64,000 nt of DNA from Escherichia phage SP27, in the sequence record LC494302.1; one strand, 5' to 3'. Positions within the stretch are counted from its first letter, which is position 1. Each line of letters starts with the position of its first letter. The notes under the pieces are model-generated. The model worked only from the letters and a program-made list of their open reading frames with translations. It made no database searches and was not told where the DNA came from. The position numbers were made by a program, and so were the translations under genes. This document shows, piece after piece, positions 3,065 through 63,951 of the stretch.

Positions 3065-3637
3065 ATGAATCGTAAAGGTCGTTTTAAAGTATCAAAAAAG
3101 AACAAAAGTTCTAGGTTTAAACCTATTGTTTTAACAGTTAAATCTAACAAAGATTTAACTGCACTTAGTAAAAAGATAATTTCATCTAAGATTGAAGTAT
3201 CATACGTAAATTCATTAAAATATATGAATGTCAAACCACTGGACCAACTCATTTCACTTATATTTGAACGTAATGATTTTGAGATATCAGTAGATGATTA
3301 TAGAGCCTATAATGCTGGTTTCATTAATGTTACTTGTAATAAAAAACTAACTGAGTTGGAAAATTTGTCATGTATAATAAATCTAGATAAAGGTGTTGTG
3401 AAGTACCATTTTGTACATTTCACTAATATCAATAATGGAATGGGTGTACAATCCAGACCTATAGTGCCTACGTGTGATGTTACTAAATTAGCAAAGCTCA
3501 ATGATGAAGAATATTTTCAAGAAAGCATTGTAACTGAGCATTTAGATGATATAATAGCTACTTACAAAGAATGCATATGGGTGTTGAATGCTATAAAACC
3601 TAAATTGTGTTTAATGAATATTGTTCGTGATTTATGA
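3065..3637 (+). CDS. hypothetical protein (C-terminal EEYFQES motif shared with 63607..63951)
   Basis: GAGGA RBS 6 nt before ATG 3065 (track ORF starts 3041); 190 aa. Confidence 0.5.
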   Translation: MNRKGRFKVSKKNKSSRFKPIVLTVKSNKDLTALSKKIISSKIEVSYVNSLKYMNVKPLDQLISLIFERNDFEISVDDYRAYNAGFINVTCNKKLTELENLSCIINLDKGVVKYHFVHFTNINNGMGVQSRPIVPTCDVTKLAKLNDEEYFQESIVTEHLDDIIATYKECIWVLNAIKPKLCLMNIVRDL

Positions 3638-3650
3638 ATGGGGAATCGTA

Positions 3651-4094
3651 ATGAGTTGGGTAAATGTTAATAGTATTGAACTTAACGAACAAGATATTTT
3701 TGCATTTGTAAATTTAACTAATAACACAGTACTAAAAGGGCGTTTGTTCAGTGCTAGTGATGGGTACAAATGGATCTCTTTGATGGATGATAGTGGTGTG
3801 ATTTATAATGTAATGCAATTACCCCAATGGGTATATAGTAACACTGCTGACGATGTTCTTACCGCAGTTATGCGTGAGTTTGAAAAACTCCCAGGTGGTG
3901 ATATCAAAAACAAAGTTTTTAATGCAGAACGTAAAAATTATACAGCACAGCAGTTGGAATCCGTTGCCATTGCTGCTTATCAAGCTGCTATTAAGAAGCC
4001 AGAGTGCGTTATTCTTAAGTATGTACCAGACTTAAAACTTACGTTGGAAGACATGGATGCATTCATTTTTACATCTGAACTTGATCAGTACTAA
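3651..4094 (+). CDS. hypothetical protein
   Basis: GGGGA before internal ATG 3651 of track ORF 3621..4094. Confidence 0.5.
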   Translation: MSWVNVNSIELNEQDIFAFVNLTNNTVLKGRLFSASDGYKWISLMDDSGVIYNVMQLPQWVYSNTADDVLTAVMREFEKLPGGDIKNKVFNAERKNYTAQQLESVAIAAYQAAIKKPECVILKYVPDLKLTLEDMDAFIFTSELDQY

Positions 4095-4166
4095 TTTAAC
4101 TTTGGGACAACCATTCTTATTATGATATAATGTTTTATGTCATTCGATATAAATGACAAACGGAAC

Positions 4167-4174
4167 TATAAATA
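4167..4174 (+). promoter_or_regulatory. T4-type late promoter core TATAAATA
   Basis: exact TATAAATA about 35 nt upstream of ATG 4211. Confidence 0.5.
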
Positions 4175-4210
4175 TTATAGTAAAATTTATCTCTTATAGG
4201 AGTTATAAAA

Positions 4211-4594
4211 ATGGTTGATAAATGGAATAAGAAAGATCCATCACATGATGTTGATATTTCTGGTCTAGACAATGCACATAAGCACAAGTATCTAGATTCA
4301 CTAGGTCTTCTAAAACCAGACCAAAGTCTTGCACATGATCGTCCATCCCGTGAAAAAGCATTTAGCCTAGAATCACTAGGTCATGAGCTTAATCGTGTGT
4401 TTGAGGATCACCCAATCTATGTACGTGATATTATCGAGAAACTTAAAGTAACTCCTAAAGAGCACTTTAAAGCAACTGTACACTCTGCATTCCGTGCATT
4501 ACATGAATCTCTAAAGAAAACTCACAATCTTCGTAAAATTCATGATGAAATCGTGAATGCAATCGAAAGTGAAAAACATAAGTTCAAGAAGTAA
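4211..4594 (+). CDS. hypothetical charged protein, late-promoter driven; paralog of 4840..6117
   Basis: TATAAATA about 40 nt upstream; AGGAG RBS; shares SLGLL and PKE motifs with next gene. Confidence 0.6.
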   Translation: MVDKWNKKDPSHDVDISGLDNAHKHKYLDSLGLLKPDQSLAHDRPSREKAFSLESLGHELNRVFEDHPIYVRDIIEKLKVTPKEHFKATVHSAFRALHESLKKTHNLRKIHDEIVNAIESEKHKFKK

Positions 4595-4596
4595 TA

Positions 4597-4626
4597 AAAA
4601 GGGTTGACTAAGGTCAGCCCTTTGTT
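4597..4626 (+). terminator. terminator/promoter module
   Basis: AAAAAGGGTTGACTAAGGTCAGCCCTTTGTT. Confidence 0.65.
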
Positions 4627-4662
4627 GTATCATAACTTCTCAATATAACTGAGGTATCATAT

Positions 4663-4776
4663 ATGCAAGGTTTAAAATTTGTAGTTGCTGCACTCATCGC
4701 CGCAGTACTGGTTGGTGGTGTATTCTATGTAGTGGATCAAAAAGTAAATCCACCTGCACAAGAACAATCTAAGTAA
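4663..4776 (+). CDS. hypothetical small membrane-anchored peptide (37 aa)
   Basis: GAGGT RBS; ORF MQGLKFVVAALIAAVLVGGVFYVV... lies between two terminators; below track size cutoff. Confidence 0.4.
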   Translation: MQGLKFVVAALIAAVLVGGVFYVVDQKVNPPAQEQSK

Positions 4777-61894: not shown

Positions 61895-62105
61895 TGAATA
61901 TCATACGATTGTAATGAAAACTAATAGTGCAATTTCTAAAAAATCAAACCCCAAGTACATACTGGAACACACATTTGAAGAACGTCAATTAGCTTTAGTT
62001 GAAGCAAAACTTCTTGCACTCCTAGGGACTAACTATCAAGAAGAATACATCAGAAAACTAATATACCTTTTAACTAAACATATAAGAAAAAGAAAAAATG
62101 CATGA
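61863..62105 (+). CDS. small protein, S2 tandem family
   Basis: motif LGTNYQEEYI. Confidence 0.6.
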   Translation: MLKNLKILTVNEYHTIVMKTNSAISKKSNPKYILEHTFEERQLALVEAKLLALLGTNYQEEYIRKLIYLLTKHIRKRKNA

Positions 62106-62332
62106 AACACTTGACAGATGATGAACATGGGCTTATAGTAATGGATGTAATCAACATCGAATACAAAAAGTTGATACGCTACCGTTGTTATGAAGATAAG
62201 CAACTCGTTCTAGCAGAACAGAAGTTGTTTCGACTCTTAAACACAAACTTCCAAGCACAATACGAAGAATCGTATATGTACCTTTTGGCGAGGAAAGCAA
62301 AAAGAGATTATGAAAATTTTAAGCAAAGGTGA
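62102..62332 (+). CDS. small protein, S2 tandem family
   Basis: ATGA overlap; motif LNTNFQAQY. Confidence 0.6.
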   Translation: MKHLTDDEHGLIVMDVINIEYKKLIRYRCYEDKQLVLAEQKLFRLLNTNFQAQYEESYMYLLARKAKRDYENFKQR

Positions 62333-62525
62333 TTCAGTAATATTACTTATAGAGAGTTCAAGTAAATTCTTAAACATAACACTGTCTGATATAGATGAAG
62401 ATGACAAAGAAGTACTGAGAGCAGATTTAAGAGTACTGTTACATATCGGAACAAACCTACAAGAAGAATATGTAGAATGCTACATCAATGAACTTAAAGA
62501 ATCAGTACTGAGAAAATGCAAATGA
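62310..62525 (+). CDS. small protein, S2 tandem family
   Basis: motif IGTNLQEEYV. Confidence 0.6.
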   Translation: MKILSKGDSVILLIESSSKFLNITLSDIDEDDKEVLRADLRVLLHIGTNLQEEYVECYINELKESVLRKCK

Positions 62526-62743
62526 AAATCATTACCGATGCAGAATACCTAACAATCATAAATGGACTGTTTTTGAAGCTCTTCGTCATTAACACATCAG
62601 ATATACCAGATATGGATAAAATTATTAAGAGAAATGAAGTCTATGTTCTAGCTACCCTTGGAACGAACTATCAAGAACACGACATTAAAGATTATATTAA
62701 TACACTTAAACGAGCGATTGAACTAAAATGCCAAAACCACTAG
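62522..62743 (+). CDS. small protein, S2 tandem family
   Basis: internal ATG 62522 overlapping upstream TGA; motif LGTNYQEHDI. Confidence 0.6.
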   Translation: MKIITDAEYLTIINGLFLKLFVINTSDIPDMDKIIKRNEVYVLATLGTNYQEHDIKDYINTLKRAIELKCQNH

Positions 62744-62943
62744 GAACAGCAGAATACATTGAACTAATGGCATTACACTTCTCATCCTTTCAGAAACTTA
62801 GGCGAGAATCAAAGAATGATTTAGAATATACCATCAGAGGTTCCGATTTAAGAATGCTTCTCACCCTAGACACAGATTCCCAAGAGCGATTTGTCAATGA
62901 GCATATTAGAGCACTTTTAATGGAAATTCAAAGTAAACTATGA
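62728..62943 (+). CDS. small protein, S2 tandem family
   Basis: motif LDTDSQERFV. Confidence 0.55.
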   Translation: MPKPLGTAEYIELMALHFSSFQKLRRESKNDLEYTIRGSDLRMLLTLDTDSQERFVNEHIRALLMEIQSKL

Positions 62944-63155
62944 AGATAATATCAAACCAAGAGTACTTGGCACTATTCAGGAAGAATAATCACAAATATA
63001 TGGCACTTGATTCAAGAACTGATATAAGTGAACTTGAAAAAAATCTTTTGCGTTCAGAGATGATAGTACTGACACTCTTAGGAACACAGCATCAAGAGAG
63101 AACTGTTAATTCACACATAGGTATTCTTATACAGATTGTACTGGAAAAGATATGA
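62940..63155 (+). CDS. small protein, S2 tandem family
   Basis: ATGA overlap; motif LGTQHQERTV. Confidence 0.6.
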   Translation: MKIISNQEYLALFRKNNHKYMALDSRTDISELEKNLLRSEMIVLTLLGTQHQERTVNSHIGILIQIVLEKI

Positions 63156-63373
63156 GAATCATAACACAACAAGATATTCTTAAGTTCACAAGGGTTCATG
63201 CATCTGAATTTGATGCTATATTATCAAAAAGTTACAACAACCCTTATACAGAAGATGTACATTACAGTGAATTATGGATGTATATACTTTTAGGTACAAA
63301 TAAACAAGAGCAAGCAGTACAGAAGTATTTGACAGCTTTACGTGATGCTACTGCTAATGGAGTATGTGTTTAA
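63152..63373 (+). CDS. small protein, S2 tandem family
   Basis: ATGA overlap; motif LGTNKQEQAV. Confidence 0.6.
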   Translation: MRIITQQDILKFTRVHASEFDAILSKSYNNPYTEDVHYSELWMYILLGTNKQEQAVQKYLTALRDATANGVCV

Positions 63374-63374
63374 T

Positions 63375-63617
63375 ATGAAAGTACTGACAGAACTAGAAAT
63401 GTATCATAGATTTAATAAGTACTATCATTTACTTAAGCCTATACAGAGGATTAAATGTCCATTTGAAGAGAAACAGGTTTTAATCTATGAGCACAAGTTC
63501 TTTGTATCATTAGGTACAGATCAACAAGAGTACTATTTGACGTTGTACTTGATTACATTAATAGATTTAATTCACTATAAAACAAAACAAGCTAATAAAG
63601 AGAAATATGAAAACTAA
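63375..63617 (+). CDS. small protein, S2 tandem family (last member)
   Basis: internal ATG 63375 (MKVLTELEMY); motif LGTDQQEYYL. Confidence 0.55.
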   Translation: MKVLTELEMYHRFNKYYHLLKPIQRIKCPFEEKQVLIYEHKFFVSLGTDQQEYYLTLYLITLIDLIHYKTKQANKEKYEN

Positions 63618-63951
63618 TATACAACTCAAGGTATATAAATCATTTGAACATACATATATCAAAAGTAGTCTATGTAGAGATGTAATGGATTACAAGGGTA
63701 AGCCATTCACAATTACCTATGATTCTTATGTTAGTGATTTATATATATCATTTGTTAATTACGAAAATAAAATATACAAGCACGTTGATATTAAAGATTT
63801 AAGTACTTTATCTGAAGAGGAATACTTTCAGGAATCATTAGTATGGGATTTAGAGTTTCCTATGCCATTAGTACATAAGATGATAGTACTAATGAAAGAA
63901 TCTAAACAGGAGCCTAATGGTGATTATGAAGAACACACAGTTGAGTATTAA
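63607..63951 (+). CDS. hypothetical protein (EEYFQES motif shared with 3065..3637)
   Basis: 114 aa ORF after the S2 array. Confidence 0.5.
   Translation: MKTNIQLKVYKSFEHTYIKSSLCRDVMDYKGKPFTITYDSYVSDLYISFVNYENKIYKHVDIKDLSTLSEEEYFQESLVWDLEFPMPLVHKMIVLMKESKQEPNGDYEEHTVEY

Follow-up and report, generated by a model that had tools for sequence, protein, structure and literature searches.

Expansion of a gene family within one lineage is a known kind of event in jumbo phages. In RaK2, nearly 10% of the gene products are mutually paralogous (PMC3622015), and phage CBB carries 22 paralogous open reading frames (ORFs) together with a long run of small genes suspected to be an early region (PMC5259590). 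A survey of 224 jumbo phages describes an expansion of about 35 zinc-ribbon copies in Bacillus phage G as unprecedented; its passages retrieved by a term search contain nothing on paralogues or on expansions in either 121Q or RaK2 (Iyer et al., PMC7824862). In Asteriusvirus, about 83% of the genes have no assigned function (PMC7247149). Here, we examined a 64,000-nucleotide stretch of Escherichia phage SP27 (LC494302.1; hereafter, the window), in which two ORFs, designated fam1 at the left end and fam2 at the right end, share the heptapeptide EEYFQES. It is highly probable that fam1 and fam2 are divergent paralogues of one lineage-specific multigene family, with EEYFQES as its signature helix.

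This family resembles the zinc-ribbon family of phage G in that small proteins are encoded by tandem same-strand copies, share one conserved element, are confined to one clade, and have no known function. In contrast to that family, its members combine a predicted beta-meander with helices, carry the signature EE-phi-FQ-x-S, lack metal ligands, and number about 50 to 60 per genome instead of about 35. No description of an EE-phi-FQ-x-S family was found in the searched literature; the Asteriusvirus genome papers among it do not mention paralogues or gene families, and the RaK2 and CBB papers mention paralogues in general terms. Thus, as far as this literature shows, neither the family nor its signature or size seems to have been described before.

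The first-pass annotation had noted the heptapeptide in both ORFs and had taken it to hint at a domain common to two proteins that otherwise differ. In six reading frames, the translated window contained exactly two copies, one in each ORF (Table 1). The ORF boundaries given in that annotation were also correct; the longest left-hand frame begins with a GTG at 3041, whereas phrog_33518 and all orthologues begin with the ATG at 3065, from which phrog_33518 spans the ORF. A lone 7-mer has no significance, because residue-shuffled window ORFs had a mean of 1.28 7-mers in common. The real window ORFs had 183, as the window is rich in paralogous genes. The EEYFQES match is made real by its surrounding context and not by the 7-mer alone.

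That the match could be due to chance, to a DNA repeat, or to gene conversion in the recent past, and not to constraint on the protein, is suggested by the shuffled ORFs and by the random occurrence of EEYFQE[SR] in the unrelated IMG/VR contigs L002 and L004. At the DNA level, however, 15 of the 21 motif nucleotides match and all six differences are synonymous, with serine encoded by AGC in one copy and by TCA in the other. Over 25 codons, only 38 of 75 nucleotides match. Because the motif codons differ and the DNA is not conserved, the constraint acts on the protein, and the synonymous differences between the copies ruled out a DNA repeat or recent gene conversion as the source of the motif. 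In addition, the motif is invariant across orthologues, and profile comparisons reached E values of 1.7e-9 and 3.6e-7, as detailed below. The codon, orthologue, and profile data already refute this explanation, which we regard as next to impossible.

Pairwise and profile alignments extended the likeness beyond the seven residues into conserved flanks. BLASTP aligned fam1 and fam2 across 78 residues (E 4e-6), and among 592 window ORFs the two were mutual best non-self matches by phmmer (E of about 0.002). The common segments IVPTCDVTKLAKLNDEEYFQESIVT in fam1 and IYKHVDIKDLSTLSEEEYFQESLVW in fam2 are identical at 12 of 25 residues. Comparison by hhalign of 14 aligned fam2 orthologues (alignment A1) with eight aligned fam1 orthologues (A2, which spans down to 44% overall identity) covered 25 columns with a probability of 96.3% and an E value of 1.7e-9. 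A hidden Markov model (HMM) built from fam2 and its relatives in Erwinia phage Hallingskeid, with fam1 omitted, matched fam1 over about 56 residues (E 2.2e-7). When 37 paralogues were compared with the fam1 orthologues by hhalign, the motif region only was aligned (22 columns, E 3.6e-7). The more divergent fam1 orthologues are nearer to fam2 around the motif; P0019, for example, has DVKDLPNLSEEEYFQESLL compared with DIKDLSTLSEEEYFQESLV in fam2.

These alignments bear on a second alternative, namely, that fam1 and fam2 are unrelated and obtained the same short motif independently, either convergently or because a small module was captured. The brevity of the hhalign match (22 to 25 columns) fits this explanation, as do the different length, basic N-terminal region, and solitary location of fam1. 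A module swap at the motif is also possible, as shown by P0013, a chimeric protein on a 662-bp ENA contig that matches fam2 in its C-terminal part and the next gene downstream in its N-terminal part. The junction lies inside STLSEEEYFQ, where identical runs of the two parent genes are at most 11 nucleotides long, and P0013 may have arisen by genuine recombination between adjacent paralogues and not through an error of assembly. However, the fam1-free HMM aligned about 56 residues of fam1, P0019 resembles fam2 around the motif, and in the models of both proteins the motif is flanked by strands and helices in the same order. Moreover, the family forms a continuum of divergence, in which nine borderline members adjoin family clusters. 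Independent acquisition is thus very unlikely, and common descent of fam1 and fam2 is the preferred reading.

Structure predictions were consistent with common descent. The AlphaFold2 (AF2) model of fam2 had a mean predicted local distance difference test score (pLDDT) of 72.6 and a predicted template modelling score of 0.64, and consisted of five strands, a helix at residues 70 to 80 that contains the motif and directly follows Ser69, a helix at 86 to 98, and a strand at 107 to 113. The fam1 model had a mean pLDDT of 67.6, with confident prediction at residues ~61 to 170 (10-residue block means of 71 to 93). It showed six strands within residues 62 to 133 and helices at 139 to 144, 147 to 156 (the motif), and 160 to 176. 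Both proteins are thus predicted to contain a five- to six-stranded antiparallel beta-meander, the motif helix, and a second helix in the same order (models md3c359ced32a and m8bd40744d772). Because no sequence alignment is possible beyond the motif region, the shared fold was deduced from the predicted secondary structure and not from a superposition. Polo-box domains (e.g., 6mf4 and 5lhx) and the immunity protein TipC2 (6dhx) are structural analogues only.

Megablast searches with both window ends matched 33 to 34 complete jumbo-phage genomes of 310 to 386 kb at 97 to 99.8% identity, including the Escherichia phages 121Q, PBECO4, phAPEC6, and E9.1, others, and a few Salmonella phages. The window (G+C content, 36%) is therefore part of a 121Q/PBECO4-like Escherichia coli jumbo phage genome of the genus Asteriusvirus, and the genes under both matches are all annotated as hypothetical proteins. 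For a census of the family, the unannotated genome OR844650.1 (351,992 bp) was used, which is 99.6% identical to the window in the fam1 region and 99.0% identical in the fam2 region. A regular expression already found dozens of ORFs with the motif in this genome. An iterated HMM search converged on 50 stop-to-stop ORFs of 108 to 218 amino acids at E < 1e-4 and reached 59 at E < 1e-2, compared with best decoy E values of 0.19 for reversed and 0.54 for shuffled sequences. The nine additional ORFs are all on the coding strand, most of them adjoin family clusters, and they include the orthologues of fam1 (1.4e-3) and of ORF 34182..34841 (6.1e-3). Among the 50 members, 36 form one uninterrupted same-strand array at 269.7 to 294.9 kb, and the others lie in clusters at 28.7 to 49.0 kb or as singletons elsewhere. 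The first gene of this array is the fam2 orthologue, and the right edge of the window is therefore the array head. The family comprises about 50 to 60 genes per genome, roughly 8 to 10% of the genes in the E. coli 121Q/RaK2-group jumbo phages.

Relatives were also found in other phages. With a 29-residue segment of fam2, tblastn matched at most five places per Asteriusvirus genome, as well as Hallingskeid and Klebsiella phages. The Hallingskeid locus consists of eight tandem genes of about 110 amino acids, all eight of which belong to the family and read ...DL..LSEEE[LYVF]FQ.S.VWD...; several of them end in LEY, and fam2 ends in VEY. In a RaK2-like Klebsiella phage, 25 HMM matches lie in one same-strand array of 30 kb. 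A family-like 39-mer matched 46 phage records by tblastn, all of 310 to 386 kb (Escherichia, 32; Klebsiella, 9; Salmonella, 4; Erwinia, 1), and the 64-amino-acid HMM consensus gave no tblastn match at E <= 0.01. A scan of IMG/VR with the back-translated motif returned six loci, of which L002 (a RING-finger protein on a 473-kb contig), L004, and L001/L005 were rejected as chance matches outside the family. An exhaustive search of 1.84 billion representatives with a profile of the mixed alignment A4 returned only 12 clusters; this number under-reports the family and is no evidence of rarity, because fam1 and fam3 dominated the profile and a match needed about 40 bits to pass the E-value threshold.

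Among the 50 paralogues, the only conserved block is [ST]-E-E-E-[LYF]-F-Q-x-S-[LT]-[VI]-[YHF]-[DN] (Table 1), and every other profile column carries less than ~2 bits. Both window proteins have this signature in place, as N-D-E-E-Y-F-Q-E-S-I-V in fam1 and S-E-E-E-Y-F-Q-E-S-L-V in fam2. Outside the motif, the paralogues are hypervariable, with pairwise identities to fam2 of 13 to 28%. The members are mostly acidic, with a median length of 148 amino acids and a median isoelectric point (pI) of 4.8; hydropathy was mostly negative, and thus nothing suggests membrane segments. Phage TH47 carries a syntenic orthologue of every paralogue, and the pooled ratio of nonsynonymous to synonymous polymorphism (pN/pS) was 0.32 for 36 pairs, compared with 0.31 for 70 neighbouring genes. 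The syntenic orthologues and this ratio indicate real, individually maintained genes under purifying selection.

Several points weigh against the assignment of both proteins to one such family. The profile-profile likeness between fam1 and the core family is limited to ~22 to 25 columns, and the 50-member HMM, which excludes fam1, matched it with no more than modest significance (window, E 2.8e-4; genome, E 1.4e-3). Outside the motif, the statistical link of fam1 to the core family is modest. In addition, fam1 is solitary and outside any array, with the nearest member ~5 kb away beyond the window, and has a basic tail that the core members lack. The shared fold was derived from the order of secondary structure in AF2 models of moderate confidence with shallow alignments. 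The member count was taken from the near-identical OR844650.1 and not from the window. Finally, the pN/pS of the 36 pairs, being the same as that of the neighbours, gave no gene-wide signature of positive selection or of an arms race. Considering the E values of fam1 with the different HMMs (2.2e-7, 2.8e-4, and 1.4e-3) against those of the decoys (0.19 and 0.54), we regard fam1 as a peripheral member.

The conservation pattern suggests a structural role for the signature. EEYFQES is the local spelling of the sole conserved element of the family, and this element most likely serves as a structural keystone helix. In the classical helix capping box, Ser or Thr occupies the N-cap and Glu lies three residues further on, and acidic residues in the first turn favour the helix dipole. 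The Ser/Thr and the three Glu residues of the signature could form such an N-capping box, and the aromatic pair, the Ser, and the Leu/Val could form a helix face packed on the sheet. On a helix, columns 72, 73, 76, 77, and 80 (phi, F, S, L/T, and D/N) would share one face, and the sole position expected to face the solvent (column 75, x) is the variable one. The family may provide a stable scaffold that presents many different surfaces, to which fam1 and ORF 34182..34841 would add a basic N-terminal tail.

Another explanation of the same pattern is an adaptor model, in which the motif is a short docking peptide by which all members, fam1 included, bind one and the same partner (e.g., a host hub protein, a protease, a chaperone, or a phage machine), and the variable remainder picks the targets. 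The exact heptapeptide occurs in at least four otherwise very different proteins of the Asteriusvirus group (fam1, fam2, P0046, and the L006 ORF), 48 of 50 paralogues retain Q and about 75% retain the acidic residues, and all else varies, as expected of a constant handle on a variable module. However, N-capping and a buried face fully account for the conservation, and the position predicted to face the solvent is the one that varies. The motif also lies inside a predicted folded domain and not in a disordered tail, and the docking model has no known partner. Docking of the invariant F-Q-x-S face on a common partner would be the more interesting reading, if true, yet we consider it unlikely and retain the keystone helix as the preferred role. 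The motif segment E-E-E-Y-F-Q-E also resembles the site cleaved by the potyviral nuclear inclusion a (NIa) proteases, such as that of tobacco etch virus (TEV), whose consensus is E-x-x-Y-x-Q. We know of no NIa/TEV-type protease in a jumbo-phage system, and the likeness was deemed a coincidence, the motif being in a predicted helix.

Large families with a conserved short module and variable surfaces are known from the poxviruses (ankyrin/PRANC) and from African swine fever virus (multigene families); they are arrayed near the genome ends and presumably modulate the host. Neither their hosts nor their folds are related to those of the jumbo-phage family, in which no ubiquitin system is involved, and the analogy is one of genome architecture only. 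Based on this analogy, and because the proteins are small, acidic, nonvirion, arrayed, hypervariable, and maintained, we tentatively propose that the family could consist of diversified intracellular, mostly acidic proteins that act as binders or inhibitors when the phage takes over the host or counters its defences. The orthologues in phAPEC6, gp039c for fam1 and gp466c for fam2, and the array are absent from the table of 62 virion proteins identified by mass spectrometry, which lists none of gp348 to gp548 (Table 1 of PMC7247149). A promoter scan of 1 to 8 kb of the window showed no enrichment over shuffles and therefore gave no evidence on expression timing. Rather doubtful is the broader proposal that this is the largest lineage-specific expansion so far noted in a tailed phage (~50 to 60 genes, 8 to 10%), with arrays across Asteriusvirus, Alcyoneusvirus, and Hallingskeid-like phages forming an arsenal of keystone-helix binders against the host or its defences, whose F-Q-x-S face might dock a common partner.

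Searches against known families gave no family-level relative in Pfam, NCBIfam, or PDB profiles for the members. Class I adenylate cyclase models matched fam2 with 16 bits, which is far below the cut-offs, and this match was treated as noise. The name DUF2283 (PF10049), attached in UniRef to P0012, an 87-amino-acid fragment of a fam2 orthologue, was also rejected. Its match scored 13.9 bits (E 0.063) against a Pfam gathering threshold of 23 bits, spans hairpin residues 10 to 36 only, and is absent from other paralogues, and the window protein itself gave no match at E <= 10. In PHROGs, fam1 corresponds end to end to phrog_33518, 12 of 16 tested family sequences match phrog_13866, and fam2 and paralogues also match phrog_15629 and phrog_24941, all labelled as unknown function. 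Because the superfamily is divided there among many separate groups, PHROGs does not connect fam1 with fam2.

The family represents a new domain and a candidate for curation in Pfam or as a domain of unknown function, and it explains the many unlinked PHROGs groups. With one gene in about 10 to 12 in a single family, a block of hypothetical proteins collapses to one testable unit. As the genes are kept one by one under purifying selection in three phage genera, they are obvious candidates for host-takeover and anti-defence screens; 121Q/RaK2-like phages are now proposed for therapy. The motif finding itself is modest, being a case of distant paralogy with no new mechanism, and the family is of moderate interest.

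Table 1. Positions of the motif, family members, and recurrent elements in the window, and composition of the signature among the 50 paralogues
Feature	Position	Strand	Details
fam1, left ORF, 190 amino acids	3065..3637	+	phrog_33518, E 6.5e-133; peripheral family member
Common 25-residue segment in fam1, IVPTCDVTKLAKLNDEEYFQESIVT	3461..3535	+	hhalign columns 133-157; EEYFQES invariant in A2
EEYFQES copy 1	3506-3526	+	residues 148-154 of fam1
fam2, right ORF, 114 amino acids, pI 5.0	63607..63951	+	core member, family HMM E 6.1e-18; heads array
Common 25-residue segment in fam2, IYKHVDIKDLSTLSEEEYFQESLVW	63772..63846	+	hhalign columns 56-80; EEYFQES invariant in A1
EEYFQES copy 2	63817-63837	+	residues 71-77 of fam2
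Probable third, divergent member, 219 amino acids, pI 9.3	34182..34841	+	motif ELSEEDLFMYSTVID at about 34695-34718
Next family member, first 28 codons (MVIMKNTQLSIKSTDNIKSYTSSSTVTI...)	63917..64000	+	overlaps fam2 end, leaves window
Signature	profile column 68		T or S
Signature	profile column 69		E (38/50)
Signature	profile column 70		E (36/50)
Signature	profile column 71		E
Signature	profile column 72		L, Y, or F
Signature	profile column 73		F (50/50)
Signature	profile column 74		Q (48/50)
Signature	profile column 75		variable (position x)
Signature	profile column 76		S (44/50)
Signature	profile column 77		L or T
Signature	profile column 78		V or I
Signature	profile column 79		Y, H, or F
Signature	profile column 80		D or N
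Hairpin AAGGTTGACTTCGGTCAGCCTT	1357, 4783, 6126, 7211, 11706, 12988, 46987	+	recurrent 22-nucleotide sequence
Further peptide-sharing ORFs	33166..33784, 39006..41286, 42914..47531, elsewhere		

The N-terminal 60 residues of fam1, which are basic (pI 10.6) and predicted to be disordered, precede an acidic domain of beta-sheet and helices (pI 5.1). The first 15 residues (3065..3110), MNRKG[RK]FKVSKKNKS, are invariant across all fam1 orthologues, even at 44% identity, and this N-terminus may be a second functional motif, for example, a nucleic-acid-binding or targeting tail. A basic N-terminal extension is also present in ORF 34182..34841, which contains the segment ...KELSEEDLFMYSTVID... and has the orthologues P0022 to P0044. 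This ORF matched the HMM of Hallingskeid genes and fam2 at E 0.0066 and the 50-member HMM at E 1.5e-5. The family member that follows fam2 is annotated as CDS0095 in PP886230.1, and its full-length orthologue, e_294195_294617, carries STLSEEEYFQYSLV and matched the HMM at E 8.6e-21.

Three fam2 orthologues are filed under bacterial names, P0012 under Actinomadura adrarensis (1,057-bp contig) and P0006 and P0010 under E. coli (352- to 358-kb contigs); these records look like phage genomes or phage contamination deposited as bacterial assemblies. The window and PBECO4 have ~60.5 kb between fam1 and fam2, compared with ~81 kb around the record ends of E9.1 (PP886230.1). This difference fits the inclusion in some records of a terminal repeat of ~20.7 kb, as reported for phage Sharanji (PMC11895373).

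Directly upstream of fam2, a separate tandem array (57794..63617, plus strand) contains at least 21 very small genes of 67 to 99 amino acids, every one with an L-G-T-N-Y-Q-E-like motif (LGTNYQE, LGTDRQEY, LGTQHQER, etc.). On the minus strand, about 12 tandem paralogous ORFs of 250 to 430 amino acids (17850..32064) have peptides of the MLPF[AG]RMVKYGNIAP type in common. Gene numbering and a size of ~40 kDa suggest that they are the counterparts of the "DNA condensation proteins" of phAPEC6 (gp003 to gp010, gp549, and gp551), a group found in its virions (PMC7247149). Long identical peptides were also found between many other ORF pairs (e.g., 39006-39245 and 40999-41286; 33166-33402 and 33575-33784). 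The number of common 7-mers, 183 compared with 1.3 in shuffles, indicates that the window probably holds several more small paralogue families.

In addition, the 22-nucleotide hairpin AAGGTTGACTTCGGTCAGCCTT occurs in seven copies on the plus strand, compared with an expectation of zero, and looks like a putative terminator. Its stem contains TTGACT, and a TATAAT-like hexamer lies 16 to 18 nucleotides downstream at several sites, which suggests that the element may be a combined terminator-promoter unit.

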